From Bacillota bacterium (GTDB lineage: Bacteria; Bacillota; Proteinivoracia; UBA4975), in contig JBMNFF010000001.1 in NCBI GenBank assembly GCA_050949165.1, positions 1,622 through 65,621 of the forward strand: a stretch of DNA of 64,000 nucleotides, written 5' to 3'. Of the stretch, positions 41,752 through 64,000 are shown one piece after another (the first letter of the stretch is position 1; each line of letters begins with the position of its first letter). The notes beneath the pieces are model-generated. The model was not told the DNA's origin. It worked only from the letters and a program-made list of their open reading frames with translations, and did no database searches. The position numbers were made by a program, and so were the translations under genes.

Positions 41752-41785
41752 ATATGCGGCAACGCCTAACGGTGTTGCCGCATAT
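41752..41785. repeat. Perfect 12-bp inverted repeat ATATGCGGCAAC-N10-GTTGCCGCATAT
   Basis: Seen in the sequence. It lies in the 400-nt intergenic region downstream of aroM. Confidence 0.5.
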
Positions 41786-42831: not shown

Positions 42832-42881
42832 CAGCAAATATCTTTTGCTGCCCCGACAGGATATAAAAAGCGCGGCTGGAG

Positions 42882-42996
42882 GGATTGAGGACAGTATTGC
42901 CTTAGCTTTACCCACCAGAGTCCATGTAGACAGATTGTGTACTAAGCCTGTTCAAGAAGGTAAAAGCCGATGCGCGGTTCCCCGCCATCGGCTTTT
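42882..42996. repeat. Copy B of the duplicated gene-3'-end + terminator module
   Basis: See copy A at 36822..36928. Here it is not attached to a full-length gene. Confidence 0.7.
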
Positions 42997-43161
42997 ATTA
43001 TTATCTGCTTCGCAAGTAGTTTGCGATGAACTGTTCTACATCTCCCGGGGCAGAAGTACCCTCTTCCCCGTGGGCGAAAGTATCCCCCCTTCCAGCTAGA
43101 GCAGACGCAATCCGACATTGTCCTGTCTCGCCATAGAGCGGGCAATGGTAAAGCTTGTGTT

Positions 43162-44346: not shown

Positions 44347-44526
44347 GCTTCACCTCTCGCCTTTCTTCTGGTTAAGCACATTTTACCATAGATAGCTCTT
44401 GGCGGGTCAGATAACCCAAGATTTTCTCGCAAGGGGAAGAGGCACGCCGCATAAACCTTCCTAAAGCAGGGATTTGGTAAAATATTGTCGAATGTTGTAC
44501 TATCTCGGATTTCTGGAGGGGATTAT

Positions 44527-46968: not shown

Positions 46969-47014
46969 AGAGCCCAGGACCAGTACAGCATGCAATAAAG
47001 GATGGGAAAGAGAT

Positions 47015-47863
47015 ATGAATAATTTTTGGCTTGCTTTTGCGCTGACAACCTTTGCCGGGTTGAGTACAGGTATAGGAAGCTTGCTCGCCTTTTTCACCAA
47101 GAAGAGCAATACCAAGTTCTTGGCGATCAGCCTCGGCTTTTCGGCAGGGGTCATGATCTATGTATCCATGATCGATATTTTCTTTAAAGCTCAGAGCAGC
47201 CTTATTAATGAACTGGGCCCTGAAAAAGGCCGATGGGTAACGGTACTTGCCTTCTTCGGCGGCATGTTCTTAATTGGCATCATCGACAGGCTGATCCCCA
47301 GCTCTGAAAACCCCCATGAGCTCCACTCGGTTGAAGAAATATGTGAAGATTGCCCGGAAGACAGTCACCATATTGAACAGATCAGGAAACGAGAAGAAGC
47401 GGAAAAAAACCAGAAGCTCCTGCGCATGGGCCTTTTCACCGCACTTGCCATTGCCATTCACAACTTCCCTGAAGGCCTGGCCACATTTGTCGCTGCCCTG
47501 CAAGAACCGAAAGTGGCAATTCCCATTGCCATAGCGATTGCGATTCATAACATTCCTGAAGGAATAGCAGTATCCGTCCCCATATTCTATGCCACCGGAA
47601 GCAGAAAGAAAGCCTTTTTCTATTCGTTCTTATCCGGGTTCTCCGAACCCATAGGCGCCCTGGTAGGCTACCTGATATTATTGCCCTTTATGAGCGACCT
47701 TTTAGTGGGGATTATCTTTGCCCTTGTGGCGGGCATCATGGTCTTTATTGCTCTGGATGAACTGCTCCCGTCGTCGCGGGAGTATGGCGAACATCATCTG
47801 TCCATCTATGGCCTGGTTGTTGGCATGATGGTAATGGCCGTCAGCTTGCTGATATTTGTCTAG
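47015..47863 (+). CDS. zupT: ZIP-family zinc/divalent-metal permease (ZupT-like)
   Basis: Two HNFPEGLA/HNIPEGIAV motifs, eight TM helices and a His-rich loop. Confidence 0.85.
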   Translation: MNNFWLAFALTTFAGLSTGIGSLLAFFTKKSNTKFLAISLGFSAGVMIYVSMIDIFFKAQSSLINELGPEKGRWVTVLAFFGGMFLIGIIDRLIPSSENPHELHSVEEICEDCPEDSHHIEQIRKREEAEKNQKLLRMGLFTALAIAIHNFPEGLATFVAALQEPKVAIPIAIAIAIHNIPEGIAVSVPIFYATGSRKKAFFYSFLSGFSEPIGALVGYLILLPFMSDLLVGIIFALVAGIMVFIALDELLPSSREYGEHHLSIYGLVVGMMVMAVSLLIFV

Positions 47864-47889
47864 GCATAAGCATGGCGATGTTGCAAAAA

Positions 47890-47938
47890 GGGAAGGCATC
47901 TTAGTTGAACAAGCCTTCCCCTTTGTTTTAGTTGAAGC
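47890..47938 (+). terminator. Terminator GGGAAGGC-N25-GCCTTCCC followed by CTTTGTTTT
   Basis: Seen in the sequence. Confidence 0.5.
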
Positions 47939-48131
47939 CCTGATAGAGATAGGGACATTGACTGTTCCATAGCACAGTGGGGCTGTGAGAAACATCGAAG
48001 ACTGCAAATTATCGGATTCCAGGGGCTGCTGAAGAAAGAGATAGGGTAGTTGTTATGCTCGCCCCAAAGCCGCATATCTAGAGTATGATTACATTAGAAC
48101 GAGTCAGCTAATGAGAGGGGCAGAACTTTTA

Positions 48132-48800
48132 ATGAAAGACTTTACCATTCGCTTGGCCCGTTTAATATTAGGGCTGCTCCTGTATGCCTTGGGGATTGCC
48201 AGCACTCTAAAAGCCCAGTTAGGCTATGCACCCTGGGATGTTTTCCATGTTGGTGTTGCCATGACCACGGGTATAAGCATTGGCACTGCCACAATTATCG
48301 TCGGAGTCGTTATTATAGCTACCGTCATGCTGCTAAAAGAAAAAATCGGCCTCGGAAGCCTGGCAAATATGCTATTGGTAGGCGTTTTCCTGGATGCAAT
48401 CCTTATGCTTAACATTTTACCTTCTGCAAACTATTTGTTTTCGGGGCTCCTTATGCTGATAGCCGGCTTATTCTCCATTGCGTTTGGTTCGTATTTCTAC
48501 ATCAGTTCAGCCTTTGGTGCTGGACCAAGGGACAGCCTCATGGTCGCTCTGGCCAGAAAGACCGGGTTGCCCATAGGGGTATGCCGTGCTGCTGTTGAAC
48601 TTGCTGCCTTGTTCTTTGGCTGGCGTCTAGGTGGGATGGTTGGCATTGGCACAGTCTTATCTGCCCTGCTAATTGGGTTTTGCGTCCAGTTGGTATTTAA
48701 GATATTAAAGTTTGATGCCACGGTAATCCGGCACCAGACCCTCAGGGAAACCTATAAAGCTATCCTATCGTCCCGGGTGCATAACAAGGGCAACGACTAA
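48132..48800 (+). CDS. YczE/YitT-like small polytopic membrane protein
   Basis: Six TM helices. The in-frame ATG at 48111 is an alternative start. Confidence 0.5.
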   Translation: MKDFTIRLARLILGLLLYALGIASTLKAQLGYAPWDVFHVGVAMTTGISIGTATIIVGVVIIATVMLLKEKIGLGSLANMLLVGVFLDAILMLNILPSANYLFSGLLMLIAGLFSIAFGSYFYISSAFGAGPRDSLMVALARKTGLPIGVCRAAVELAALFFGWRLGGMVGIGTVLSALLIGFCVQLVFKILKFDATVIRHQTLRETYKAILSSRVHNKGND

Positions 48801-49162
48801 TGTGCCAAGGGCACCTCGATTTAATGTGGAAATATGTATGCAGGAAATCATCTAATAGCAACTGCCCCTTGGGGGTCGTTGCTATTTCTGTACAGGGGGA
48901 GAGACCGTGATAACCCGCTTCGAGTCCATCAATAAACATAAAGTATGGCTGATGTGGCGCACAGCTATTTATCCTGACCCACAATCAACAAATCTCCTGG
49001 CAGGTCGGGGCCTGGTTTGAAAATGATATGAACATAGATACATCGGCCAGCTATTATAAGCCAAATTGCACCGCCACAAGCAGTGGTCGCAATTCAAAGT
49101 TGGTGATACTAGATGATTAGCCGTATTAGATGCAACCAACCTAACTAAAGGGAGGGAAGAAA

Positions 49163-49879
49163 GTGATATCTGTCGCCACCTGGAACATGGATTACTGGAA
49201 GCGCAAGAAGGAGCAGCGCCAAGCGGCCTGGACCTATTTAACTGAAGAAATTCGCCCCGACATTGCCTTACTCCAAGAGTGCAAGCCGCCTCCTGTCATG
49301 AATAGGGAGTATAATATTATTTACCATGAAATAGGTGGTGCTAGAAATTGGGGGTCGGCGGTGCTGGCCCGCAGTTATACCATAAAGGAGGTCGAATTTG
49401 AAAACAGCCACCCCGGTTGTGTGGTGGCTGCAGAAATAGAAATACTAGGTATCACTTTGACAGCAATCAGCGTATACGGGATGTTGTGCAAGCATAATTA
49501 CGCAACTACGACGATGCACAGAATCCTTTCCGACTTGACTCCTTTAATCCATGGCCAGCGGAATAGACGCACTTTCATAATGGGTGGCGATTACAACGTA
49601 AGCACTCAGTGGGACGAACGCTATAAGCACCGCGATCCTTCTCACCAGTTGGTTTTCGACAGGATTGAGGATTTCAGATTGGTGAACTGCACTCTTCAAT
49701 ACTTCGGAAAGCACGTTCAGACCAACCACCATGCTAGGAGCAATTATCCATGGCAGAATGACTATCTGCATGCTTCAAAAAAGCTCGCGGCCAAGTTGGT
49801 GTCATGCGAGGTATTTGGTGAGGAGGAGATAAGAGAGTTTAGTGATCATTTGCCCGTATTAGCTCATTTTGCTTTCTAG
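49163..49879 (+). CDS. Endonuclease/exonuclease/phosphatase (EEP) family protein, copy 1
   Basis: GTG start after AAGGGAGGGAAG. ATWNMDYW, ..IALLQE.. and a C-terminal SDHLPV hallmark. About 85% identical to the 59678..60394 product. Confidence 0.75.
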   Translation: MISVATWNMDYWKRKKEQRQAAWTYLTEEIRPDIALLQECKPPPVMNREYNIIYHEIGGARNWGSAVLARSYTIKEVEFENSHPGCVVAAEIEILGITLTAISVYGMLCKHNYATTTMHRILSDLTPLIHGQRNRRTFIMGGDYNVSTQWDERYKHRDPSHQLVFDRIEDFRLVNCTLQYFGKHVQTNHHARSNYPWQNDYLHASKKLAAKLVSCEVFGEEEIREFSDHLPVLAHFAF

Positions 49880-50049
49880 TTTTCAATTGCCTCTAAATCG
49901 AATTGAAAAGCCCCGGAGGTAAAGTAGGATGGAGGAATGCTATGGGTATTAAAGATGTTATTGTGAGGAATGAAGCTGCAATTAAACAGTACCTTGAACT
50001 TGGGTATGTAAATGAAAAGGATCTACTCAAACGTCAGTAGTGTGTGATA

Positions 50050-51395
50050 TTGTCTGTAAAAGTGGATCCTTAATTTAAAGGGCCATCGCCCTCTGGTAAA
50101 ATGGAAGTGTCAGAAACAACCAATTACTGGAGGGATTGCGATGACCCGTATTAATCTTACCTTATCCGAGGAAACTTTGCACCACCTAATTTCCGGGGAT
50201 GATAAAGGAATTTCTATGTTGCTGAGAGAGGCCCTGAACCAGATTCTAGAGCACCAAAGGACTGAGCAGATTGAGGCTGCCCGTTATGAGCGAACCGAAA
50301 CTCGTCGGGGTTTGCGGAACGGCTACAAGCCTAGAAAACTTAACACCCGGGTAGGGACCCTAAACCTTCGGGTTCCCCAAATACGGGATGGCGTTTTTTC
50401 TACCGAGCTGTTTAGAAGATACCAGCGTAGTGAGCAGGCTCTAGTGCTTGCCCTTATGGAAATGGTGGTTAATGGGGTATCTACCCGTAAGGTGGCAAGA
50501 ATCACCGAGGAGCTATGTGGAACTGAGTTCTCAGCTTCAACTGTGTCTAGCTTATGCAAGCAATTAGACCCCATCGTGGAGGGGTGGAAAAACCGCAGCT
50601 TGGCTGGACAAGCCTTCCCCTTTGTCCTGGTGGATGCCCTCGTCATAAAGCTTAGGGATAATGGCCGAGTTCGTCCTCATAGTACTATGTTGGCAATCGG
50701 GATAAACGCCGAGGGCAACAGAGAGATTTTGGGGTTTCAAGTAGGAGACAGTGAGTCAGAGTCCAGCTGGACAGACTTTTTTAATTCCCTAAAAAACCGA
50801 GGTCTATCTGGGATAGACCTGGTTGTCTCCGATGACCACAGAGGGCTTGTAAACGCCGTACAGACCTGTTTCCAGGGGGTAACCTGGCAAAGGTGCCAAA
50901 CTCACTTTACCAAGAACATACTGGATAAATGCCCAAAATCATTACAGGCTGAATTGAAAGCCAGGCTCCGTACAGTATTTGAGGCGAACGACACCGAAAC
51001 GGCACGGAAGTTGGCCAAGGGTATTCACGAAGAATATGCTGATAAAGCCGCTAGGGCTGTAGAGACTCTGGACCAGGGGTTTGAGGATGCCATTGCGGTG
51101 CTGGCACTACCTGAGTACTATCGGCGAAAACTAAGGACCACCAACAGCGTGGAGCGGCTCAACGAAGAGATCCGCCGCAGGGAAAGGGTCATAAGGATAT
51201 TTCCAAATCCTGAATCGGCAGTAAGGCTGATAGGAGCGGTACTGATGGAACACCATGAGGAGTGGAGCGAAGGACGACGATACTTTGACATGAGCTCGTA
51301 CTGGTCTTGGAAAAAAGAGCAAGAATCAGCCGGTAAAAACGATTGCCGGATAAGTGCATAGATACAGTTTTGCCAGAGGCAATTTTACAGACAAA
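50050..51395 (+). mobile_element. IS256-family insertion sequence (~1.35 kb)
   Basis: Imperfect terminal inverted repeats TTGTCTGTAAAAGTGG (left) and GCAATTTTACAGACAA (right) flank the transposase gene. No clean target-site duplication was seen. Confidence 0.7.
50141..51361 (+). CDS. IS256-family (mutator-type) transposase
   Basis: 406 aa with the D...D...E core (..VLVDALVIKLR.., SDDHRGL, ..NSVERLNEEIRRR..). Confidence 0.92.
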   Translation: MTRINLTLSEETLHHLISGDDKGISMLLREALNQILEHQRTEQIEAARYERTETRRGLRNGYKPRKLNTRVGTLNLRVPQIRDGVFSTELFRRYQRSEQALVLALMEMVVNGVSTRKVARITEELCGTEFSASTVSSLCKQLDPIVEGWKNRSLAGQAFPFVLVDALVIKLRDNGRVRPHSTMLAIGINAEGNREILGFQVGDSESESSWTDFFNSLKNRGLSGIDLVVSDDHRGLVNAVQTCFQGVTWQRCQTHFTKNILDKCPKSLQAELKARLRTVFEANDTETARKLAKGIHEEYADKAARAVETLDQGFEDAIAVLALPEYYRRKLRTTNSVERLNEEIRRRERVIRIFPNPESAVRLIGAVLMEHHEEWSEGRRYFDMSSYWSWKKEQESAGKNDCRISA

Positions 51396-51485
51396 ATTGG
51401 ACTTGACCGTAGCGAAGATACGCTCGGTATTGACTTATGATTAAATAAATGTTACTGTATATTCAATTTTACTTAGGAAGAAAAA

Positions 51486-52097
51486 TTGGAGGAACAAATG
51501 AATATTAAGAAGTATTTTTCTAATAACACTGCAATTTTAACTATTATTTGTATTAATCTGATTGTCTTTATCGCAATAAACGCTTTTCCCAATCTTCGTG
51601 AAATTCTTTTATTAAATGCTGATCCCAAAATAATGTTAGAAAAACCATGGACTTTATTTACGGTCTTTTTTTCTCATGAGCTGCTGATACATATTCTATT
51701 AAACATGGTTTTGGTTTTTATCTTTGGTACTGAGCTCTATAAAGAAACAAATGCAAAGGTAGTTTATCTTGTTTATATCCTTTGTGGATTTATTGGTAGT
51801 TTATCAATCTTTATATATGCTCCTTTAATCGGATATAATGGAGGATTAATCGCAGGAGCTTCTGCAGCAGCGTTTGGGATTGTTGCAACTTATGTTATAC
51901 TGCAGCCCAATACTATGATATTAGGATCAAAGGCAAAATACTGGTTGATAGCATTATTTATTGTGAATGCTATTTTAACCATAAGAGATCCCTTGGTTTC
52001 TGTTGGCGGCCCGGCTCATGCGGTAGGTATTATAGTAGGATTGCTTTTAGGCTTGCTGCTGAAGAAAAAGCAAGTCGCAAAGAGCGGCAATGAGTGA
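51486..52097 (+). CDS. Rhomboid-family intramembrane serine protease
   Basis: Six TM helices, a GASAAAFG (GxSG) catalytic Ser and a downstream AHAVGIIVG His. The region has very low GC. Confidence 0.8.
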   Translation: MEEQMNIKKYFSNNTAILTIICINLIVFIAINAFPNLREILLLNADPKIMLEKPWTLFTVFFSHELLIHILLNMVLVFIFGTELYKETNAKVVYLVYILCGFIGSLSIFIYAPLIGYNGGLIAGASAAAFGIVATYVILQPNTMILGSKAKYWLIALFIVNAILTIRDPLVSVGGPAHAVGIIVGLLLGLLLKKKQVAKSGNE

Positions 52098-52132
52098 CTT
52101 TCACATAATACAAGAGATGTAGAGGATAAAGC

Positions 52133-52876
52133 ATGAAAAATCATAGTACTAAAAGAACAACGATTTTGGCAGTACTGCTATCGGTATTCTTATTTCAACA
52201 AGCCGCCAGCAAAATTGGTAAATATGTTGCTAATATTTTTGATTACAGCTTAATAGATAGTTATAATGTTTTTGCCTGGATTTCTGTGCACCACATTGTA
52301 CAGACACTTTTAGCTTTGGTGCCCATTATCATACTATCAAAAATTTATAACATCGATTTTGGTTTCCGTTTAGGAGATAAAAAAACAGGTTTAAAACTTA
52401 TTAGGATATACACAATTGCGATGTTAGTATATATAACTTTTACATCTGTTATAACCTATTTTGGCAATCAAATTGTTCAATATGATTATCCGTTAACTAT
52501 GACAAACATTTTAGGCTCATTGGGATTTCAACTTTTCTTGACGGGCCCTTCTGAAGAAATTCTATTCCGTGCTCTGCCGATTTCAATATTCGCTTGCGTT
52601 ATATCGAGTGAAAAAGGCATAAAAACAGGGAAACTGCACATTTCATGGCCCAATATTATTGCTGCGATATTTTTTGCTCTCGCACATATCAAATGGACCA
52701 TAAGCCCATTTTCCGTAAGCTTTGAATATATGCAACTGCTATTTTCATTAGTTTTAGGAATAATGTATGGAATCGTATATGAGAAAAGTAAAAGTGTAAT
52801 CTATCCGATGATAATGCATAGTTTGACCAACGTGGCAGTCGTTGGGGCGGGATACATATTATCTATTCTCAAGTAA
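52133..52876 (+). CDS. CPBP-family intramembrane metalloprotease (CAAX protease/Abi, bacteriocin-immunity type)
   Basis: EEILFRALP (EExxxR), FALAHI and HSLTNV motifs. Eight TM helices. Confidence 0.8.
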   Translation: MKNHSTKRTTILAVLLSVFLFQQAASKIGKYVANIFDYSLIDSYNVFAWISVHHIVQTLLALVPIIILSKIYNIDFGFRLGDKKTGLKLIRIYTIAMLVYITFTSVITYFGNQIVQYDYPLTMTNILGSLGFQLFLTGPSEEILFRALPISIFACVISSEKGIKTGKLHISWPNIIAAIFFALAHIKWTISPFSVSFEYMQLLFSLVLGIMYGIVYEKSKSVIYPMIMHSLTNVAVVGAGYILSILK

Positions 52877-53100
52877 ATGCTTTTATTCGAATCACTAATG
52901 GTATCCGTCAGTCGCACAAAATTATAAAAGCCGCTATTTTAGCGGCTATTTTTATATAACGGAACTTATTGCTTAGTCGACGGTTTGAAAGAAACCTAAC
53001 CATAGTATATGTTCCCGCTTACTGATAGTGAAAAAGTGTCTCGGACATTTCCGAAAACGGGGGAGGGCAGGGGACATCTACACAATTCTATTAAAGTAAA

Positions 53101-53329
53101 TCAATCCCCCGAAACACGTACTTCTGCACCGGATTCACGTAGAATTTTTGTCCAATACTCAATAAATTCCTTGCCCGAAGGGATGTTATCATCGGTTTTG
53201 AGACCAAGTACTCTGCTTTTGCCCACTCCGAGATTATGATAGGGCATGATCTCTGCATAACGATAGCTGCCCATATGTTTTTTTAAAAAATCCCTGAGTG
53301 TTTGTTGTAGACTAGTTTTACCGGGAATT
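53101..53329 (-). pseudogene. C-terminal ~75-aa fragment of a glycyl-radical-enzyme activating (radical SAM, PflA-like) protein, truncated by the IS21 insertion
   Basis: ...IPGKTSLQQTLRDFLKKH....MPYHNLGVGKSRVLG...PSGKEFIEYWTKILRESGAEVRV matches the PflA/activase C-terminus. The upstream part of the ORF runs into IS21 terminal-repeat DNA. Confidence 0.6.
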
Positions 53330-53463
53330 GCATGATAGGTTCCCCGGAAATTGCAAAGTAAAATTCCCTGTTTTTGCAGATAGAGAAGGCCATTGCAGCA
53401 GCCCCATAGAAACCTACCCTTGTAACGCCAATCACGAGGGAGGTAATTAGGAGGATGCTGACA

Positions 53464-54984
53464 ATGGCGCAAATTAATTGTATCAGAGAAATGTACTTTG
53501 AGAAAGGCATGAATTATGCCAGCATAGCAAGAGCCACAGGACATGATGTAAAGACAGTTAAGAAATACATCAACATGAAAGACTTTACTCAACCGCTTCC
53601 CAAACCAGCTAAAAAACGCGGGTCTAAGTTGGACAAGTATAAAGAGGAGATAGATAGCTGGTTGGAAGCAGATAAGCAGGCCCGCAAGAAACAGCGCCAC
53701 ACTGCGCGCAGAGTCTTCGATCGGCTGGCTGGAATTTATGGTCCTGAATTCAACTGTTCTTACCGGCTGGTCGCTGCGTATGTAGCAGAACGTAAGAAGG
53801 CGCTATACAGTCAGGAAACCCAATTTTTTATGCCTCTGGAACATATCCCGGGAGAGGCGCAAGTAGACTTTGGCGAAGCAGATTTTTATGAGGGCAATGA
53901 ACTCTGCAACGGCTATTACTTGAATCTCTCTTTCCCCAATAGCAATGGCGGTTACCTGCAGCTGTTCAAAGGGCAGAACATGCAATGCCTGGCCGAAGGG
54001 CTGATGAACATCTTTGCCCACTTGGGCGGCGTACCAACCAGGCTCTGGTTCGATAACCTTTCTCCAGCAGTAAAGAAAATCCTGAAAAACCATGGGCGGG
54101 AACTGACAGATTCGTTCCTGCGTTTCAAGAATCACTACGGATTTATTGCTGCGTTTTGCAACCCCGAGAGCGGTCATGAAAAAGGCAATGTGGAGAACAA
54201 AGTGGGCTACCATCGGCGCAATCTGTTGGTGCCCATCCCCCGGATAGATGACCTAAGAGCATTTAATCGCCAACTGCTTGAGAAATGCGATCGAGATATG
54301 CAAAGGCCACATTACAAGAAGGCGCTGCTGATTCAAGAGCTGTTCTTTGAGGACCGAAAAGCGCTGCTGCCACTGCCCGCTGTCCCCTATGATGAATCCG
54401 AGATTAAGAAGGTGCGCACTAACAGTTACGCTAAGTTCACATTAAATGATGGGAAGCACACTTACTCCACCGCTCCCCGTTACGCCAACAGCGAAGTATT
54501 CGTAAGGTTGACCGCTCATGACGTCATTGTTCTGGACGAGAGCTACAGGGAGGCAATTAGGCACCCCCGCCTCTACGGTAAAGAGAACAAGGAATCCATG
54601 GACTGGCTGCCATATTTGGCCCAACTGGCCCGCCGACCTGCGGCCCTAAAATACACCGGTATCTATCCCATGCTCCCTGAACCTATACAGGATTTCCTGG
54701 ACAACTGCGACTACTCGAGCAAGAAGGAAGCCTTGACAGTCTTGGCCAAGCTCAGCGAGGCAAGTGGGTTTAACAAGGCTACTGAAGCCTTCTTGACGGC
54801 CTTGGAACACGGTGTAAGCGATGCCGACAGCATCATAGCTATGTTTAGTCGACTTAACTGCGAAGTCCTAGACCTGGATCCCCTAATCCTGCCGGCCAGT
54901 GTTCCCGACATGCCCCAAGTACAAGCTAACGTAGCTGAATATGACCGCTTGTTCTTGAGTGAAGGTGGTATTCATGAAAGCTGA
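53464..54984 (+). CDS. istA: IS21-family transposase IstA
   Basis: N-terminal HTH (MAQINCIREMYFEKGMNYASIARATGHDVKTVKKY) plus the DDE core. Confidence 0.92.
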   Translation: MAQINCIREMYFEKGMNYASIARATGHDVKTVKKYINMKDFTQPLPKPAKKRGSKLDKYKEEIDSWLEADKQARKKQRHTARRVFDRLAGIYGPEFNCSYRLVAAYVAERKKALYSQETQFFMPLEHIPGEAQVDFGEADFYEGNELCNGYYLNLSFPNSNGGYLQLFKGQNMQCLAEGLMNIFAHLGGVPTRLWFDNLSPAVKKILKNHGRELTDSFLRFKNHYGFIAAFCNPESGHEKGNVENKVGYHRRNLLVPIPRIDDLRAFNRQLLEKCDRDMQRPHYKKALLIQELFFEDRKALLPLPAVPYDESEIKKVRTNSYAKFTLNDGKHTYSTAPRYANSEVFVRLTAHDVIVLDESYREAIRHPRLYGKENKESMDWLPYLAQLARRPAALKYTGIYPMLPEPIQDFLDNCDYSSKKEALTVLAKLSEASGFNKATEAFLTALEHGVSDADSIIAMFSRLNCEVLDLDPLILPASVPDMPQVQANVAEYDRLFLSEGGIHES

Positions 54985-55702
54985 AATTGCTGAGTGCTGC
55001 CGCCGCCTTCGCTTAAGCAAGAACATAGCAGAAATCTCCGACCAAGTTGAAGCTGACAGCTACCAGGAGTACCTGCTTAAGGTCCTGAAGCAAGAGGTTG
55101 CATACAGGGAAACAACCCGCAAGAACCGTCTGGTAAAACAAGCTGGTTTCTACAACTTGAAAACCTTTGATGGTTACAGCTTTGACGAAATTCGGTTGCC
55201 AACAGAGCTCTCAATTGCCGATTTAAAAGAAGTGAACTTCGTCAGGCAACAGAAGAACCTCATCTTCTACGGCAATGTAGGCACCGGCAAGACCCACCTC
55301 GCCACGGCCATAGGGATTGAAGCATGCAATAGAGGTCTATCTGTTCGGTTCTTCCGCACAGCAGCCCTGGTCAACCAACTCAGCGATGCACAGAAAAAAG
55401 GCGAGCTCAATAAACTTCTGAAACAATTAGCAAAGGCTGATCTGTTAATCTGCGATGAATGGGGATATGTCCCCCTGGACCGAGACGGTTCCAAGCTCTT
55501 GTTCCAGGTAATTTCAGACCGCTACGAGCAAAGGAGTGTGATCATCACTACCAATCTTGAATTTAGCAAGTGGGTAAACATTTTCTATGATGAGCAGATG
55601 ACGGCTGCCATGATCGACCGCTTAGTTCACCACAGCTACCTGCTATTATTCGATGGACAGAGTTACCGGATTAGGAAATCATTGATGAAAGGCTACGCAT
55701 AA
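54959..55702 (+). CDS. istB: IS21-family helper ATPase IstB
   Basis: NLIFYGNVGTGKTHLA (Walker A) and DEWGY (Walker B). Overlaps istA. Confidence 0.92.
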   Translation: MKVVFMKAEIAECCRRLRLSKNIAEISDQVEADSYQEYLLKVLKQEVAYRETTRKNRLVKQAGFYNLKTFDGYSFDEIRLPTELSIADLKEVNFVRQQKNLIFYGNVGTGKTHLATAIGIEACNRGLSVRFFRTAALVNQLSDAQKKGELNKLLKQLAKADLLICDEWGYVPLDRDGSKLLFQVISDRYEQRSVIITTNLEFSKWVNIFYDEQMTAAMIDRLVHHSYLLLFDGQSYRIRKSLMKGYA

Positions 55703-55776
55703 ATTCCCTGGCGGGGTTGTTGCAAGGGAAGTTTGCAAACACAGGGAAAAAGAGCTTGCAAAAAACAACTATTTGA

Positions 55777-56613
55777 TTGTCCTGGAGGTAATCATAGTAC
55801 TCTCCCTCAGTTTCAAATTCCATGGGGCTGTGAAACTGCTTATAGTAGGAGAGGAAATAGGTTAACAGTATGTCCCTATATTTTTGCTCTTTACTTAGGG
55901 CTGTAAATTGCTCCTCGACAAACTGAGTTAAATCTATGTTGGTTACGGTAGGCTGTTTCCCTTCGACCTGGGCGATAATTTCTTTACCCAGTTTGTGAAA
56001 GGTCATGGCGTCAATATCTTTGCCAGTCTCTTTCTTGATCCGCTCAGACATTTCTGCAGCCGAGGCATTGGTGAAGGACAAAACCAGCAGTTCATTGGGC
56101 TGGTAGGAATATCTATCTAACAGATATTTGACCTTGCCGACTATGGTCGTGGTCTTGCCACTACCGGCGCCGGCTATGACGAGATTGTTTATTTCATCCT
56201 TAATTATGCATTCCCTCTGTTGGTTATCCAGTGACCTTCCTTCGATATTAGCGAAGAGGGCGTCATAACGCTTTTTTTCCCTGGATCGCGTTGTATTTTT
56301 TGCAGATATCATTCAGGGTGGCGCATGTTTGTTTAAACTGGTCAATCTTGAGTTTGTTTCCCGGGGGTAGTTTGCGATACCGCCTGGTTTTTCTGATTCT
56401 TTCCTTCAACTCATGGACCGAGGATTTCCAGTCTGCTATGTTTTGTTGATCCATATACCTGGAATAGTCCATAATGCGGCCCAGTGCCTCGAGGGCATCT
56501 CGGCATTCCATGGCAATCTCATCCCAGGAACGAATTAGGTCGAGCTTTCGCTGTTTTCTTTTTTGTTTATAGGTGCTGTACCAGGAGGCAATTCTTCTGA
56601 ACAATATACCCAC
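55777..56613 (-). pseudogene. N-terminal part of a HelD/UvrD-like SF1 helicase gene, frameshifted at an A7 run (~56285) and truncated by the right end of IS21
   Basis: ORF 56263..56613 (N-terminal coiled region) joins ORF 55671..56312 (..NNLVIAGAGSGKTTTIVGKVKYLL.. Walker A/Ia) if A7 is read as A6. The coding sequence stops at the IS21 boundary. Confidence 0.6.
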
Positions 56614-57112
56614 CCCTGATTGGTAAATTGCATCTACATTCTATCACATTCTTTATTTTATAACCATTTGCCATAACACCTGGGTAGAGGGGGAGGGCAG
56701 ACAGAATTGGGCAATATGGAAAGTCTGCACAAAGTGGTGCGAAAGGTTTTACTTTCCAGGCAGGACATTTTTTGAATACATTGAATAACATTAAAGAACC
56801 TTAATCTGGTAGGATTTTTCCTTAGAGTTATTTTGGGGTAGTTGCCCACTATTCGGGGCTAGCTTACAAGGGGCGTGCTTTGCCTAATACCTTGGGCATT
56901 TGCGCAGCAATAACAAAAGTTTATGTCAGGACTGTCTGATATTGTAATTACAGGGACTGGAGGGGGGATAGTATGTTTGGTGAGGCGGACAGGAATGGCC
57001 AGTTTATTGGTTGCGCTGGGTATCCCAAGTACAGGAATACTGCACAGGTAAAGTGAATCGCATGTTGCATATATTGTTATAAGTGTAAGTTTGGGGAAAG
57101 GGGAGGGAGCTT

Positions 57113-58933
57113 GTGGCAAGCACATTCAAGTCCAATGACGTACCTATCGCTGAGATTTTAAAGCAGATTGCGAAAGGGGAGACCCAGCTTCCAGATTTTC
57201 AACGGGGATGGGTATGGGATGAGGAGCGGATTATTGCTCTTATTGCCAGCATTTCTAATTCATATCCCGTAGGGGCTTTAATGTTCTTAGAGTATGGTGG
57301 GGATTCGGTCAGGTTTCACTACCGTAAATTTACGGGGGTAAAAGTGGATAATACTATCCCCAATATTTTAGTATTGGATGGCCAGCAGCGTCTCACATCG
57401 ATTTACAGTGCGATGTATTCCAGGGATGCGGTTGTCACTCGTACAGATAAAAACAAAGAAATTCAAAGGTTTTTTTATCTTGATATCGAAAAATGCCTGG
57501 ATACTTCCACTGATCGCGTTGATGCTATTATTTCAGTTCCGGAGGATAAAATAATCCGGTCAAATTTCGGGCGAGTTATCGATCTAGACGTAAGCACCAG
57601 GGATAAGGAGTTTGAAAACCACCTGTTTCCGCTGAATATAGTATTTGACTTCATTGAATGTGCTAAATGGCAGAATGAGTACCAGAAATATCACGGGTAC
57701 TCGCCTGAAATATTGGATCGCTATGCGAGATTTAATGCTGAGATACTGGTGCCAATCCAGACTTATAATGTTCCTGTCATAACTTTGGGTAGGGGGACCC
57801 CTAAGGAAGCAGTGTGCCAAGTTTTCGAGAACGTTAATACCGGCGGGGTATCCTTGACAGTGTTTGAACTAGTAACTGCTATGTTTGCAGCAGATGATTT
57901 TCGGCTGAGGGATGACTGGGAAGAAAGAAAGGAACGCCTTGTTAATGAATCTGCGCTTTCAGTTTCCAACCTGGATGCAGCCGTATTATCTGTAGTGTCA
58001 CCCACTGATTTCCTTGTGGCGGCTACCTTGCTTTCCAGATACTACATCAAAGCTCAGGGTGGAGAAGCCGTTAGTTGTAAGAAGAAGGACGTCCTGCGCC
58101 TCACGCTTGGTGAATATAAGAACTATAAAGAGCAACTAACTAACGGTTTTATCCAAGCTGCCAGTTTCCTTAAGGAGCAACGCATTTTTTCTGCAAGGGA
58201 TTTACCATACAGCACACAGTTAATTCCCCTGGCAGTTATATTTACCATTCTGGGCAAGCAGGCTCATGATGTTTTTATTAAAGATAAGATTGCCCGTTGG
58301 TACTGGTGCGGCGTATTGGGCGAGATGTACGGTGGCGCCAACGAAACCAGGTATGCCACTGATGTGACTGGTATGATGGATTGGATAAATGGCGGCGAGG
58401 AACCGGATACAATTCAAAGAGCATATTTCCAGCCCACCCGGTTGCTTACCTTGCAGACCAGGCTCAGCGCAGCATATAAGGGGATAATGGCTCTGATTTT
58501 AAAAACAGGATGCTTGGATTTCATTAGCGGCAGCGCTATGGACTTCACTGTTTTCCTTGATGAAAGCACTGATATTCATCATATATTCCCGAGAGCATAT
58601 TGCGAGAGCGTTGGGCTACCGAGATCGAGGTGGAATTCGATTGTTAATAAAACGCCGTTGTTCGCGAGGACTAATAGAATTATCGGGGGCAGTGCTCCCA
58701 GTGAATACTTGAAAAAAATTGAGAGAGATGGGCGTATCACTAAGGAGCAGCTAGACGATTATGTCGCTTCGCATCTTATCGACGTGTCATGCCTAAGGGA
58801 AGACGATTTTGACACTTACTTTATTAAACGGGCAAAAGCGCTTTTGAAAGAAATCAGCTGCGCCATGGGCAAACCCATTGCCAATTTAGGTGGGGATGAT
58901 GTAATAATCGGCTTTGGCAGCTCCTTGGAGTAG
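57113..58933 (+). CDS. GmrSD-like type IV (modification-dependent) restriction endonuclease: N-terminal DUF262 (ParB/Srx-like NTPase, DGQQR) plus C-terminal DUF1524 (His-Me finger)
   Basis: VLDGQQRLTSIY in the N-terminal half and DIHHIFPRAYC in the C-terminal half. GTG start after GGGGAGGGAG. Confidence 0.8.
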   Translation: MASTFKSNDVPIAEILKQIAKGETQLPDFQRGWVWDEERIIALIASISNSYPVGALMFLEYGGDSVRFHYRKFTGVKVDNTIPNILVLDGQQRLTSIYSAMYSRDAVVTRTDKNKEIQRFFYLDIEKCLDTSTDRVDAIISVPEDKIIRSNFGRVIDLDVSTRDKEFENHLFPLNIVFDFIECAKWQNEYQKYHGYSPEILDRYARFNAEILVPIQTYNVPVITLGRGTPKEAVCQVFENVNTGGVSLTVFELVTAMFAADDFRLRDDWEERKERLVNESALSVSNLDAAVLSVVSPTDFLVAATLLSRYYIKAQGGEAVSCKKKDVLRLTLGEYKNYKEQLTNGFIQAASFLKEQRIFSARDLPYSTQLIPLAVIFTILGKQAHDVFIKDKIARWYWCGVLGEMYGGANETRYATDVTGMMDWINGGEEPDTIQRAYFQPTRLLTLQTRLSAAYKGIMALILKTGCLDFISGSAMDFTVFLDESTDIHHIFPRAYCESVGLPRSRWNSIVNKTPLFARTNRIIGGSAPSEYLKKIERDGRITKEQLDDYVASHLIDVSCLREDDFDTYFIKRAKALLKEISCAMGKPIANLGGDDVIIGFGSSLE

Positions 58934-59139
58934 CGAGAATGGGGCCAGGTCCGACCAAGGCTTTTACTCAGATGAAGGAGGGTTGCTATAGGGAGGCCTG
59001 GTCGTATTAACCCTCGAGCTTATGCGGAATGTGTACCTAAGGTTTTGGGTGGCAAGGGGCTTATGCAACAGGGATTCAAATGTGTCCTAGAGTTAGCAAT
59101 GCCATGGCTACTAGAGGTATAGCAGCAGAGGCTGTGTAA

Positions 59140-59183
59140 TGCGGAATGGACGCCAGAGGGGGGTACTTACCTCCATGGCGTCC
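59140..59183. terminator. Strong palindrome AATGGACGCCA-N19-TGGCGTCCATT (possible bidirectional terminator)
   Basis: An 11-bp perfect stem, about 200 nt downstream of the GmrSD gene and at the stop of the minus-strand ORF. Confidence 0.4.
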
Positions 59184-59589
59184 ATTTGATATTTAGTTTA
59201 TTAGCATGCGTTCCTCCGACAAGGATTCTTGCCACTGGATATCGGAATAATGAGCCTTGCTGAGGGATAGCAGGACTGGGGTATATATTTGTTGAATATG
59301 TAAAAGATGCAACATTTGGTTTTGGAGGCAACTTAATGAAACGAAATCCTTCGACAATTTTATGGAATAAACGTGGAATATTAGCAGCAGTTTTACTTGT
59401 TCCGATTTTGCCATAAGTAATAATTTTTTTATCAGCATATTTAATAAGCTTATCACCGACCGGCACAGTAACTAACCTGCCATTATCACTTGCAGTGCCC
59501 TTAAGAACGCCAATGCCTAACTTCCCACAAAGGATGGGAGTATAGTCAGTTGTTGTAAACTGTATGCGGGTGGGTTGATGCTGCCACAT
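59167..59589 (-). CDS. Hypothetical 140-aa protein
   Basis: ORF only; no recognisable motif. Confidence 0.25.
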   Translation of the reverse strand: MWQHQPTRIQFTTTDYTPILCGKLGIGVLKGTASDNGRLVTVPVGDKLIKYADKKIITYGKIGTSKTAANIPRLFHKIVEGFRFIKLPPKPNVASFTYSTNIYPSPAIPQQGSLFRYPVARILVGGTHANKLNIKWTPWR

Positions 59590-59677
59590 TTATTTATGAA
59601 GCCTTTTGCTACAGGACACCTTGCGTCCAGTGTTTAAGCAACTTCAAAAGAATTATTGCAGGATGGGAGGGGAGTAT

Positions 59678-60394
59678 GTGATATCCATTGCCACCTGGAA
59701 CATGGATTATTGGAAACGCAACAAGGAGCAGCGACAAGCTGCCTGGGACTATTTAACTGATGAAATTCGCCCGGACATTGCCCTACTCCAGGAGTGTATG
59801 CCGCCTTCTGTCATTAGCAAAGGATATAATATTATTTACCGGGAAATTGGTGGTACTAGAAATTGGGGGTCTGCGGTGTTGGCTCGCGGTTATCCCATAA
59901 AGGAAATAGATTTTGAAAACAGCCATCCTGGTTGTGTGGTAGCTACAGAAGTGGAAGTACAAGGCGTCACCTTAACGGCAATCAGCGTTTACGGAATGCT
60001 GTGTAGGTATAATTACGCGACCACGACGATGCACAGAATCCTTTCCGACTTGACTCCGTTAATACATGGCCAGAGGAGAAGCCGCACTTTCATAATGGGC
60101 GGGGATTATAATGTTAGCCCTCAATGGGATGAGCGCTATAAACACCGCGACCCCTCCCACCAGTTGGTTTTTGACCGGATCGATGATTTCAGACTGGTGA
60201 ACTGTACCCTTCAATACTTCGGAAAACTTGTCCAGACCAACCACCATTCTAGAAGCAAATTCCCTTGGCAGAATGACTTTCTGCATGCATCAAAAAAACT
60301 TGCGGCAAAGCTGGTGTCATGCAGGGTATTTAATGAAGAACATGTAAGGGAGTTCAGTGACCACGATCCAGTAGTGGCTTATTTTGAGGATTAA
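59678..60394 (+). CDS. EEP (endonuclease/exonuclease/phosphatase) family protein, copy 2; immediately upstream of a UvrD-like helicase gene
   Basis: GTG start after GGGAGGGGAG, chosen by homology to copy 1. ATWNMDYW...ALLQE...SDHDPV. Confidence 0.7.
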   Translation: MISIATWNMDYWKRNKEQRQAAWDYLTDEIRPDIALLQECMPPSVISKGYNIIYREIGGTRNWGSAVLARGYPIKEIDFENSHPGCVVATEVEVQGVTLTAISVYGMLCRYNYATTTMHRILSDLTPLIHGQRRSRTFIMGGDYNVSPQWDERYKHRDPSHQLVFDRIDDFRLVNCTLQYFGKLVQTNHHSRSKFPWQNDFLHASKKLAAKLVSCRVFNEEHVREFSDHDPVVAYFED

Positions 60395-60561
60395 TAATAA
60401 AATGGGGCGGAGTTCGAAGACAAAAAAACGGCCGCTTGCTGTTAGGCCGCACCTGGGATGAAATGCCTGCGCTGAAAACCGGCAATTAGGATACCGGGCG
60501 GGCAGGTTTGTCACGGGAGCGTGCTATTGTATATATGTCAGCACAAAGGGAGGTAGATTGT

Positions 60562-62523
60562 ATGTCCCATCTGAAGATATGGCAGCAAGCTCAGAAAAAG
60601 GTGGAAGAAACCGTTGCCAGAGTGAAGTCATTCCTTGACAGCTTTTCCCGGGAGCGGGAAGAGTTGCAGCAGCGGATTGCCAAATATCGTGAGGACGTAA
60701 AGAATGCGGACAGCAAGGACAGGCAGTTCATGTTGTCCGACCTTTTATGCTGGAAGAAGAGGCCCGCCTGGGCAGACGCATTGAGGATATGAGCACCGGC
60801 CTGTTCAGCCCCTATTTCAGCAAAGTCGTTTCCGATGAGGCTATTTACATATCCAAGTACTTTTCGGACCCAGATCATAACCTGGTCAAATTTACATCGC
60901 CCGTCGCCGTCCTCAGATACAAAGACGTGGAACAAGTTGGCTATGTCAACGGCATAGCCCACAAAATCAAGGAGAAGCAGATTGTAGACATCGAGGAGGG
61001 TACCCTGAGGCGTTTGGAGCACGCCGAGGCCGACACCGTTTTTGTTTACGATTGCAACAGGGTAACCTTTCTCCACAAGCGGCCTGGGGAGCTGCCGGTG
61101 AGCAAGGCCAGTTTGGCCGCCCCGCAGCCGGAGAGCGCTGAGGCGGCCGAGCCCAAGAAATATGTGCTGGGCGAGATTATCGCGAAAATGCGGGAAGAGC
61201 AGGACCGCATCATGCGGGCGCCCTACCAGGGGGTGACCCTGGTCAAGGGGGCAGCAGGTTCCGGCAAGACCAACATTGCCTTCCACCGCATTGTTTACCT
61301 GCTCAGCGAGCATCCCAAGGAGTTCCGGCAACAGGCCATCGCAGTATTTTGTTACAACGTGGCTTTGAAGAAGTATTTGAGCAACATGCTCATCGAGCTG
61401 AATATCCCGCGGGTTCAGGTCTTCAGCATCGACGAGTGGCTTTACTCCATCCTCCGGAAGGTCACCAACATTAGCTGGCTAAATTACGATGAAGATACCT
61501 GGACCAAGATTGTCAAGACGCGCAAAGAAGTCCTGCCGATCTTGGACGTTTTTTACGCTGAGTACAAACCCCAGCTCCTCAAGACGATAACCGTGGAAGA
61601 GGTTGGCGAGGACAGCCTTCTGCGCATCGACGGGCTATGGATTCTCAATTTGCTCTATACCTACCGGCCCTTCTTAGAGCATATCAGCTGGCATGATTCC
61701 GGCGGCCCGGTCCGCTATGAGCCGGGGGAAAGGGTGGACCATTCAGATCAGTTTCTCCTTGCCTGGCTAATTCAGAAGCTGGCTCAAGACAGGAATCTCA
61801 ATGTCTTTGGCTATTACGACCACGTGGTGGTGGATGAGGTCCAGGACCTGATGCCCGTCCAGCTTGCCCTGCTGGACACCCTACACAACAATTCCATGAC
61901 CCTGGTGGGGGATGTGAGTCAAAGGATTTTCGCCCTGGGCGTGGACAGCTGGGACCAGCTCCCCGTTACCATCAATAGCACCTATGAACTTACTATGTGC
62001 CATCGGTCCACCCTGCAGACCCATCCTCTTTGCCAACGAACTGCTGGCAGACAAAGGGGACAATATATATTCAACAAAGGTGGGGAAACAAGGGGAAAAG
62101 CCGTGTCTCTTCAGGGCTGCAAACCGTACCGATGCCCTGGACAAGGTTGTTCAGTATGTAAAGGAAATCAAGGGGCGGGAACCCCTGGCCTCGGTGGCGG
62201 TCCTCAACTTCCGTAACAGGGATTTGAATTGGATTAATGACAACCTCTGGAAAGCGGGCATTGACAGCTACATTGCCACCAAAGGCGACTGGGAGTTTTC
62301 GCCCCGGGTGGCGGTTACCACGTATCACCAGGTCAAGGGTTTGGAATTTGACTACATCTTCATCCTGGGGCTTAACGATTACCAGCAGTTAAAAATCTCC
62401 AACATGGACAAGGTTATCTACACTGCGGTGACCCGGGCCCAGAAGCGGGTGTACATTGCTTATTGGCGGCACCTCCCGGATATCCTCAAAAAAGCGGACC
62501 CGGAGCTATATGTCCGGGTCTGA
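60562..62523 (+). pseudogene. UvrD/HelD-like SF1 helicase with a ~230-aa N-terminal extension; two frameshifts (T4 run ~60745; C3 run ~62010)
   Basis: AAGGGAGG RBS plus the ATG giving MSHLKIWQQ. Frames rejoin as ..FMLSDLL|(F)MLEEEARL.. and ..CHRSTLQT|ILFANELL.. (motif IV NYRST..IL.AAN). Motifs KGAAGSGKT, VVVDEVQDL and YHQVKGLEFDYIFILGL. Same subfamily as the 44527 helicase. Confidence 0.65.
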
Positions 62524-62718
62524 CAAGGGGCCTTTGCAATACTCAATTCTCCTGGCCGGATTTCCTGTTATCAGCACGGCGCCAACGGCCAGGGACAAGC
62601 TGGCAATCGTGAAAGCTGTTACGATTATCAACATTATGTAACATGCAATCTTGTTGGCTACAGAATAATGTACTATTAAACTGACAGAAAGGCTCATCGC
62701 CCCGAAAAAGGCACACAT
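62506..62718 (-). CDS. Possible 70-aa hydrophobic small membrane protein
   Basis: ORF with two predicted TM helices; no RBS was checked. Confidence 0.2.
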   Translation of the reverse strand: MCAFFGAMSLSVSLIVHYSVANKIACYIMLIIVTAFTIASLSLAVGAVLITGNPARRIEYCKGPLSDPDI

Positions 62719-62891
62719 TAAGGACAGTCTTTTTAAGAGCGTTATCCTGTCCGCCTTTCCCTCCCTGTTGAAGCTGTTGCGATTGCAACTATGGAACCCA
62801 GGCGTTCTGGCATAGAATGCTTTTTTACTGTATTATTTGGTTGCGGGCAAGGGTGCTGAGCGCGGCAGGGTATGTTTAAAGGGTAAAACGG

Positions 62892-62922
62892 GATGCTGGA
62901 AAAGCATCCTTGTTTTTTCATC
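62892..62922 (+). terminator. Orphan terminator GGATGCT-GGAAA-AGCATCC followed by TTGTTTTTTC in an intergenic region
   Basis: Seen in the sequence. Confidence 0.45.
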
Positions 62923-63028
62923 TGGCAATAGCAAAGGAATTGGGTGGAATTGCTGGTCATATTTTACAAGGATGTCACGATACTCGTGTAGAATTATTGT
63001 AACAATAATTGTTCGGGGAGGGGGCCCT

Positions 63029-64000
63029 ATGACCAGGAAGTGGAGTGAGAGTCCGTCGTTTTTTCTCAGACAGCCCTGGACTGGCCGCACTGATTTGCTA
63101 ACGGAAAGGGCTGCTGAGCTGGCGAAGGAATGGCTCAGGAGAAAAAAGGGTCCGGTTGTCGCCGGTTCCGAGGCTATAAACACAGCTTTGTGCGCAATTG
63201 AGGAGTTGAAGAAGGTCAATCAGTTCCTGCGCGTTGCCGTAGTTGTACCGAGCCGCCCGTTAGTTCACCAATGGTCGGAAAGAATCCAGGAGTTTTTCGG
63301 CTTCCCCGAAAGGGTAGTGGGCTTAGTTGACGGCGAGCGCAGCGATTTTTACTCCAAGTGGACAAGGATCCTTGTGTGTACTGCTACCCCGGGAATAAAC
63401 CTGCTTGCGGAAAAGTGCGATTCGTTCATTGGCCAAGACTTGCTTCTTATAGGGCATGATTTGAACCACAGTCAGCTTCATGCTTTGCTGGCAGCTCCCC
63501 ATGCTTACAGCCTTATTTTACTGGAGGACGACGCGGCGGTGACTGCGCACGATTACTATGGTTGCGAAGATGAAGATTCTGAACCAGTTGAACCATTAAA
63601 CGAAGAAAGTGCCAGGGCAAGGACAACCGCAACACGATTGCTCGACTGCACCAATTTACAGGACAGCGATGCCTATTTTTCGGCAATGCTCACCAAAGAC
63701 ATGTTAATCGGGGACATTGAGATTAGCGAAGAGGAATTGGACCATCTGGCCAACCTCATTACTGCAGAGTTAAAGAAACCATTTCCGCATATAAAAAGCT
63801 CCTTAAGCATTGCTGTATTTCTGGTATGGGCTGGAATCTTGTATTATCAGGAAGGCAATTATTGGGCCCCAATTTATGAAAAACTGGGCTTGCCATTATC
63901 CAGTAGTAAATGGCAAGCGATTCTCGGCAATGTTTTTTTAGACGTAATCAGAAATAATGGACTCCTGGAGATACGGGATGGGCAAACCTACGTTACCCCA
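63029..64000 (+). CDS. Hypothetical protein, 3'-partial (runs off the window); helicase-core-like fragments (..ILVCTATPG..) but no canonical Walker A
   Basis: GGGAGGGGG RBS plus ATG at 63029. The frame is open to the window end (at least 324 aa) and is absent from the ORF track because no stop codon is reached. Confidence 0.5.
   Translation, partial: MTRKWSESPSFFLRQPWTGRTDLLTERAAELAKEWLRRKKGPVVAGSEAINTALCAIEELKKVNQFLRVAVVVPSRPLVHQWSERIQEFFGFPERVVGLVDGERSDFYSKWTRILVCTATPGINLLAEKCDSFIGQDLLLIGHDLNHSQLHALLAAPHAYSLILLEDDAAVTAHDYYGCEDEDSEPVEPLNEESARARTTATRLLDCTNLQDSDAYFSAMLTKDMLIGDIEISEEELDHLANLITAELKKPFPHIKSSLSIAVFLVWAGILYYQEGNYWAPIYEKLGLPLSSSKWQAILGNVFLDVIRNNGLLEIRDGQTYVTP

Follow-up and report, generated by a model that had tools for sequence, protein, structure and literature searches.

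We consider it likely that positions 46969-64000 of a 64,000-nt stretch of contig JBMNFF010000001.1 (hereafter the window), and probably more DNA on both sides of them, form a recombination-prone accessory locus directly downstream of a conserved gene (hereafter the anchor gene) whose product combines a UvrD-type helicase, a nuclease and an S24 peptidase, and that the cargo of this locus is mostly of anti-phage type, is exchanged between strains and sister species, and has been eroded here by deletions and two insertion sequences (IS). The host is an uncultured member of the Bacillota from anaerobic digesters, represented at species level by the metagenome-assembled genome (MAG) AS09scLD_363, with UBA5509 and UBA5286 as sister species. 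A sequence-only reading of the same DNA had placed a 15-kb accessory or defence-type island and transfer hot spot at 49163-64000. Every feature which that reading named is present in the sequence. The island is real, with foreign composition and cargo that differs between close relatives, and it is not a bounded 15-kb unit: position 49163 is arbitrary, and the variable zone has its left limit at the stop codon of the anchor gene (46968) or earlier.

Variation and composition of the locus

Most of the variable cargo compared starts directly after the stop codon of the anchor gene. The gene itself is 98% identical in L022 and 79-87% identical at the nucleotide level in L023, L024 and L025 (L numbers denote the sequences used for comparison), and the genes downstream of it differ in each; the cargo at the site differs as well in L011, L018, L007, L026 and L125. 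Over 38218-52991 the window matches L011, a JGI contig of 1.1 Mb, at 99.97% identity; past this point L011 diverges and continues with a different IS256-family element, an IS whose transposase is of the DUF772 type, and TetR and transporter genes. L018 lacks 49196-50034, which removes the first of two nuclease genes, and this deletion abuts the end of the IS256 element. In L022 and L007 the anchor gene is followed by 281 nt absent from the window, a helicase fragment and the GmrSD-like gene, with 46964-55767 missing, and the species-representative MAG has the same join through the 281-nt spacer and likewise lacks 46964-55767. L026 passes directly from the 3' end of the S24 part to the YczE gene, without the ZIP segment.

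Relatives at 82-87% identity hold other cargo behind the anchor gene, namely a PDC-S06 ATPase, SNF2 with DUF4391, or transporters. L025 (87% nucleotide identity) has the anchor gene, its terminator, an AAA_13 gene and an endonuclease/exonuclease/phosphatase-fold (EEP) gene; UBA5509 has AAA_13, a 475-aa protein, SNF2 with DUF4391 and a trypsin-like protease; and UBA5286 has transporter and metabolic genes. In L039 a truncated S24 3' end is followed by the same terminator, an EEP gene (76%), an intact 656-aa helicase and a NERD protein, beside Wadjet genes, and L125 carries YczE, Mrr, AAA_13, a DUF499-like gene, NERD, a split DUF5131 gene, an intact helicase and the gene for a 1623-aa protein. 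Comparison with related genomes therefore finds no conserved synteny of the block.

Nor is the composition of the block host-like. The interval 49163-64000 is clearly foreign: GC content falls from 0.591 in the first 30 kb to 0.509 over 30.9-47 kb and 0.459 over 49163-64000, and tetranucleotide usage correlates with that of the 1-30 kb reference at ~0.95 inside this core, 0.25-0.8 over 30-48 kb and ~0 over 48-60 kb (-0.07 to 0.20 for sub-windows starting at 48-56 kb). The anchor gene and the features behind it are listed by position and strand.

44485-46968 (+): anchor gene, 827 aa; UvrD-type superfamily 1 (SF1) helicase, HSDR_N_2 (PD-(D/E)xK) nuclease and LexA-type S24 peptidase, by Pfam
46945-48041 (+): ZIP zinc-transporter segment, gene at 47015-47863, bracketed by a 19-nt direct repeat
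48111-48800 (+): YczE-family membrane protein gene; NF052291, 5e-51, 173 bits, below the 205-bit NCBIfam cut-off
48854-48886 (+): terminator hairpin of the anchor gene, from alignment with relatives
48854-49117 region (+): AAA_13/PDC-S06 ATPase remnant, with the start codon and ~14 codons from 48907 and the last 53 codons at 48959-49117, from comparison with L025
49163-49879 (+): EEP1, ExoIII-like EEP-fold gene, 238 aa, intact; Exo_endo_phos, 1e-7
50035-51408 (+): IS256-family element, ~1.37 kb, with an intact 406-aa transposase gene at 50141-51361
51486-52097 (+): rhomboid intramembrane protease, 4e-20
52133-52876 (+): CPBP/Rce1-like intramembrane protease, 2e-13
53104-53298 (-): possible tail (~65 C-terminal codons) of a glycyl-radical-enzyme activase (radical SAM)-like gene; PDB match to PflA 3c8f
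53299-55767 (+): IS21-family element, 2469 nt, ends TG...CA, istA and istB both intact
53455-54984 (+): istA; NF033546, 2e-77, 260 bits against a cut-off of 160
54959-55702 (+): istB; IstB_IS21, 8e-69
55768-56613 (-): N-terminal fragment of a helicase IV/HelD-like SF1 (UvrD-type) gene, from profile searches; 3' part cut by IS21
57113-58933 (+): GmrSD-like (DUF262) protein, 606 aa, intact; GmrSD_N PF03235, 4e-30, 105.9 bits against a cut-off of 33.2
59678-60394 (+): EEP2, ExoIII-like, 238 aa, intact; Exo_endo_phos, 6e-7
60562-62523 (+): HelD-like SF1 helicase pseudogene in three reading frames
63029-64000 (+): first 323 codons of the gene for a 1623-aa protein (98% identical to P0227), running off the window

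The S24 part of the anchor protein contains GIAAGQP with the Ala-Gly cleavage site, GDSM and LKRF, all invariant in 16 family members; in the alignment of these 16 the Walker A, DExQ, D...ExK, Ala-Gly, Ser and Lys positions do not vary. More than 120 protein clusters across the Clostridia, often annotated 'LexA', have this architecture, and in the cultured genomes of Clostridium bovifaecis and Ca. Syntrophocurvum the gene has defence-type genes as neighbours. Keyword searches of the literature for a UvrD-S24 fusion found no description of it.

Intact and broken cargo genes

Most defence-type genes in the island are dead. The intact candidates are the GmrSD-like gene in 49163-64000, a Uma2 fusion matching PDC-S03 upstream of that interval, and the giant C3a139-like gene for the 1623-aa protein; the PDC-S06 gene and the two helicases are remnants. 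The ZIP, YczE and rhomboid/CPBP genes make up the non-defence share of the cargo. PADLOC evidence consists throughout of matches to individual profiles.

The GmrSD-like gene, which the sequence-only reading had recognised as a type IV restriction gene, is the sole intact gene of a recognised defence family within 49163-64000. Its product matches PADLOC profile PDC-M55C best (2e-29) and HEC-05, of the BrxU group, at 3e-22, and its N-terminus matches BrxU (7p9k), with identity to BrxU limited to ~90 residues. The translation contains LDGQQRLTS, which includes the DGQQR motif, and HHIFP near the C-terminus; residues 472-522 give a weak match to HNH_4 (E = 0.032). When the protein was aligned by BLASTP to a protein with both GmrSD_N and GmrSD_C, the N-terminus alone aligned. 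In BrxU and HEC-06 the nuclease motifs DHIYP/EHICP are essential (bioRxiv 10.1101/2024.01.29.577857). By these matches, membership of the GmrSD family is secure for the N-terminal domain only, and we regard the protein as a putative type IV, modification-dependent restriction enzyme, which by analogy with its family would combine an NTP-dependent DUF262 domain with a C-terminal His-Me-type nuclease cutting modified phage DNA. An identical protein is encoded on 19 metagenome contigs. Just upstream of the gene, 20 codons at 56991-57050 (+) resemble the C-terminus of the L039 NERD and Zn-ribbon protein (identity 65%; E = 7e-4 for a search space the size of the window) and are perhaps a further gene remnant.

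EEP1 and EEP2 had been described as duplicated nucleases. Two genes are indeed present, with 83.5% protein and 84% DNA identity between them, and they are diverged alleles and not the product of a recent duplication. At the canonical EEP catalytic positions both proteins retain the residues shared by all 26 family members compared, and the closest solved structures are those of ExoIII/Xth. A general two-gene system of EEP and helicase was considered and rejected: an EEP-alignment scan of JGI metagenomes yielded 80 loci, and clustering of the neighbouring open reading frames (ORFs) revealed no recurrent partner, EEP-helicase adjacency being confined to the closest clade (L039-L041 and the window). 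About 6 of the 80 loci lie near type I restriction-modification (RM) genes. In four of the 80 (L076, L103, L122 and L058), distant EEP relatives (39-48% identity) have a DUF262/GmrSD-like gene 0.04-2.3 kb away, a pattern that the window repeats with the GmrSD-like gene, then 744 nt, then EEP2. Two small ORFs, called as genes in other assemblies, also accompany the nucleases: a 140-aa ORF at 59167-59589 (-), between the GmrSD-like gene and EEP2, and a 45-aa ORF at 49903-50040 (+), after EEP1. Neither has a precomputed Pfam match on other contigs, and the 140-aa ORF has none in a direct scan; they may be spurious or remnants.

Both SF1 helicase genes expected from the sequence-only reading are present and both are broken. 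The minus-strand fragment has a frameshift of its own at ~56263-56312, and the resulting pair of ORFs (113 aa and 253 aa) is also found in the independent IS21-free assemblies L001, L006 and L007; because these IS-free assemblies share the frameshift, the gene was already a pseudogene before IS21 arrived. Compared with its intact L125 orthologue (654 aa, 91% DNA identity), the plus-strand gene has lost 4 nt at 60744 and gained 1 nt at 62020, and intact orthologues in L125 and L039 are 654-656 aa long. The closest solved structures to the helicases are HelD 6wvk and 6yxu.

The adjacency of this second helicase to the 1623-aa protein gene is kept in L125 at 91% nucleotide identity, the gene occupying 10001-14872 there. 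No Pfam domain is recognised in the protein; among PADLOC candidates it remotely resembles C3a139 'HKD+Snf2'. About 545 representative clusters match it at E <= 1e-3, mostly of 1100-1600 aa, with their N-terminus aligning to query residues 204-371; its first 200 residues resemble a degenerate helicase motif region.

Of the AAA_13 ATPase gene, ~1.6 kb of the interior has been deleted in the window, and an intact gene (616 aa; PDC-S06, 4e-175) stands at the same position in L025. The YczE gene sits between the stop codon of the anchor gene and its terminator, and in the alignment homology with L023 and L025 resumes at 48847. Ahead of it, the 19-nt direct repeat GGGCTGCTGAAGAAAGAGA, which is the 3' end of the anchor gene, occurs at 46945-46963 and 48023-48041 and encloses the 1.08-kb ZIP segment. 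Within this segment, 36 nt at 47907-47942 are left of an IS256-type transposase gene (13 aa, QAFPFVLVEAL); a full IS256 remnant near 47.9 kb was rejected, since tblastn with the transposase gave no match and this scrap is all that is present.

The very AT-rich rhomboid and CPBP pair was confirmed, with both domains matched and a GC content of 0.338 over 51409-52991; a plasmid search with this segment found no match. For the truncated radical-SAM gene that the sequence-only reading had named, what stands is a PflA-like tail of ~65 codons, and the activase assignment is weak. The 199-aa ORF (53101-53700, minus strand) that probably prompted this name extends into IS21, leaving ~65 codons outside it, and the sole PDB match of the tail is to residues 186-243 of the pyruvate formate-lyase activase PflA 3c8f at E = 0.17. 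The tail carries an (M/L)PYH(N/E)LG motif and has no Pfam or NCBIfam match; the CX3CX2C cluster-binding N-terminal domain of such an activase is absent; just the C-terminal tail remains and the rest of the gene is missing.

Insertion sequences and a proposed history of the locus

The IS256 and IS21 insertions are both present with intact transposase genes and matches to their family profiles, as had been proposed. The IS256 transposase is of the Mutator-type DDE class (Transposase_mut PF00872, 2e-131; NF033543, 1e-115, 386 bits against a cut-off of 150) and ~61% identical in amino acids to annotated plasmid IS256 transposases, and the element has imperfect terminal inverted repeats, as in the family. 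Its right end, 51408, is set by related copies in L022 and L043, and its left end, ~50035, by the deletion junction in L018. No 8-9-bp target-site duplication was found, the flanks being CAAACGT(C) and GTAGCGAA. In L011 the rhomboid/CPBP pair lies between two different IS256-family elements, the second, to the right of the pair, having no nucleotide match to the first; a composite transposon of cargo between two IS256 copies was rejected for the window, which has one IS256 beside the pair.

The ends of IS21 are defined by copies in L042 and L043 that match 53299-55767 exactly and have other flanks, and L001, L006, L007 and L022 are IS21-free alleles. That the element is mobile is demonstrated by its three different flanks and by alleles which lack it at the right-hand junction of the window. 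No target-site duplication is seen at IS21 in the window, and the 281 nt that lie to the left of the IS21 site in the IS-free alleles are missing. The lack of a duplication at either IS, together with the missing 281 nt, fits secondary rearrangement, and because the left flank of IS21 is an unrelated gene tail, these 281 nt are gone and a low-GC block follows directly after IS256, we infer that the IS loci reflect secondary rearrangement rather than simple insertion.

A history of the locus can be proposed from the cargo compared across L025, L039 and L125. The earlier order would have been the anchor gene, its terminator, an AAA_13 (PDC-S06-like) ATPase, an ExoIII-like EEP nuclease, a HelD-like helicase, sometimes NERD, and the 1623-aa protein. 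The ATPase gene would then have been cut down to its two ends, and the small ZIP and YczE segments inserted ahead of it; an IS256-family element would have been placed after EEP1, with foreign rhomboid and CPBP DNA of 34% GC on its far side; IS21 would join the unrelated radical-SAM tail to the helicase fragment beside the GmrSD-like gene; and a second, diverged EEP-helicase copy would have acquired its two frameshifts. Judged from the genes, the parts that could still work are the GmrSD-like enzyme, the two EEP nucleases, the two IS and the membrane proteins.

A number of observations weigh against this account. The shift in composition away from the core starts near 31 kb and not at 49 kb, which leaves the left boundary diffuse, and the right edge of the variable zone lies past the window end. 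No integrase or recombinase was found among the ORFs searched in the window, so that the route of cargo exchange is without a marker, and the 64-kb window contains no tRNA genes. Upstream of the anchor gene there is no synteny with L022, L023 or L024. For the GmrSD-like protein, the C-terminal half has no match to GmrSD_C PF07510 even at E <= 1, and a single-sequence AlphaFold2 (AF2) model made without an alignment has a predicted local distance difference test score (pLDDT) of 31.6 and is unusable. At IS21, L042 and L043 show no clear target duplication either, which makes its absence in the window weak evidence for rearrangement. Finally, 52992-53298 and the left IS21 junction are covered by no independent contig retrieved.

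This last point bears on the unlikely explanation that an assembly join through a repeated copy of IS21, and possibly of IS256, linked two loci that are not adjacent and so exaggerated the mosaic. Both IS are repeats in these communities, with contigs that end or begin inside them (four metagenome contigs, L014-L017, stop in IS256 at 50162, as expected for a repeat, and L002, L003 and L008 begin in IS21 at 55723-55738), and the IS21 flanks are unrelated genes without a target duplication. However, L011 confirms every junction in 38218-52991, including both IS256 ends, and L002, L003 and L008 read from within IS21 through its right junction. A true IS-mediated rearrangement would look identical to such a join, and if the window were split at IS21 both halves would still be compositionally foreign and variable between strains. 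A reading that treats the locus as ordinary chromosomal DNA, its low GC arising from AT-rich genes and membrane proteins rather than from horizontal origin, we regard as barely credible: ZIP, YczE, rhomboid and CPBP are hydrophobic proteins of the membrane, whose genes tend to be richer in AT, and GC is generally lower from 31 kb onward, but genes for soluble proteins (GmrSD-like, 0.446; EEP1, 0.473) and the IS21 element (0.482) are likewise far from core GC, the tetranucleotide correlation is near zero, and near-identical strains differ in the presence or absence of segments. These strain comparisons refute native DNA as an explanation.

It is also quite improbable that the locus is what remains of a site-specific integrative element, such as a prophage, an integrative and conjugative element or an integrase-driven island, with the 3' end of the anchor gene as its target. 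The 19-nt repeat of that 3' end around the ZIP segment would suit such an element, as would the isolated S24 3' fragments found beside other cargo in L026, L028 and L039. Against it, the window lacks phage and conjugation genes in addition to an integrase, a recombinase and tRNA genes; in L026 an IS1182-type transposase gene precedes the S24 fragment by 170 nt and accounts for its truncation; and a scan of viral contigs with the anchor gene gave distant matches to the helicase domain only, with no close relative that includes the S24 part. With the IS1182-type transposase near the L026 fragment and no integrase found, attachment sites were rejected as the main explanation of the S24 fragments. 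We retain the recombination-prone accessory locus as the preferred and most economical reading. A more speculative extension of it, which we offer as a tentative and somewhat doubtful possibility based on predicted domains, is that the anchor protein, with its LexA-type self-cleaving peptidase, might be an uncharacterised helicase-nuclease that is triggered by RecA*/DNA damage and serves immunity or control of the island, and that interchangeable defence cassettes are recruited beside it, the broken AAA_13, EEP, HelD-like, NERD and 1623-aa set then being the wreck of at least one undescribed multi-gene system. In its favour are the spread of the architecture through the Clostridia, the invariant helicase, nuclease and self-cleavage residues, and the defence-type neighbours in the two cultured genomes.

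Several further features lie upstream of the locus. A lysine riboswitch (Rfam RF00168, 112.9 bits) is found at 11870-12051 (-), in the high-GC core. At 42019-42831 (+), upstream of 49163-64000, is the fusion of a PhdYeFM antitoxin domain with a Uma2 (restriction-endonuclease-like) domain that matches PADLOC candidate PDC-S03 at 1e-55. An intergenic element is repeated at 36840-36985 and 42905-43075 of the window and at 600-770 of L022; it contains the GC-rich hairpin AAGCCGATGCGCGGTTCCCCGCCATCGGCTTTT with a similar upstream flank of ~40 nt and is probably a terminator or a repetitive extragenic palindromic (REP)-like repeat. At position 40715 the window has a 1-nt insertion relative to the 99.97%-identical L011, which truncates a DUF917/S-Me-THD gene (a 282-aa ORF against 361 aa in L011) and is either a strain-specific frameshift or an assembly error.

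Comparison with known systems

The GmrSD-like protein shares with GmrSD, BrxU and SspE, the DUF262-DUF1524 type IV enzymes (bioRxiv 10.1101/2024.01.29.577857), a single polypeptide of ~600 aa and an N-terminal DUF262 domain with DGQQR, and its HHIFP resembles their DHIYP/EHICP nuclease motif. It differs from them in a C-terminal half that is recognised neither by Pfam GmrSD_C nor by PADLOC profiles, and the gene is not embedded in a BREX, Hma or type I RM locus.

For PDC-S06, an AAA_13 ABC ATPase of the PrrC/RloC-like kind, relatives hold an intact gene at exactly this position (4e-175 to 5e-267), whereas in the window nothing of it is left but ~14 codons at the start and 53 at the end. With 616-617 aa, the proteins of L025 and L125 fall short of the profile length, that of L025 stopping at profile position 613 of 740, and their genes are followed by a separate EEP or DUF499-like gene.

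The helicases share with HelD and with Gabija GajB a predicted N-terminal coiled coil and UvrD-type 1A/2A domains, and GajB profiles match all of them. They reach, however, 75.7 bits with the HelD model NF041464 against a cut-off of 419, so that HelD is the nearest solved relative only; unlike Gabija, the window has no GajA-type (ATPase-TOPRIM) gene, and its two candidate helicases are pseudogenes. The helicase gene of close relatives comes after the EEP nuclease gene, which is not a described arrangement of either system. The two IS agree with the IS256 and IS21 families in transposase type and in terminal repeats or ends, and IS21 also in occupying several independent sites; they depart from them in that neither is flanked by a target-site duplication in the window and each separates unrelated sequences.

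The concept of defence islands and variable hot spots with conserved genes as anchors at their flanks is established. The window shares with such islands a conserved anchor with interchangeable cargo, clustered restriction, ATPase, helicase and nuclease genes, atypical composition, and IS and gene remnants. It differs in having no integrase or tRNA, in that much of the cargo is dead or of non-defence type, and in its anchor, which is an uncharacterised helicase-nuclease-S24 protein without upstream synteny. For annotation, several apparent genes here are remnants. The locus also provides leads in the widespread helicase-nuclease-S24 family near defence genes, the recurrent, unnamed EEP/HelD-like pairing, and a family of 1100-1600 aa without Pfam domains. 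Since IS-peppered, pseudogene-bearing defence islands are already well known, the window is an ordinary and unsurprising example of them, and a well-resolved case of IS and recombination eroding and reshuffling a defence locus in an uncultured digester bacterium.

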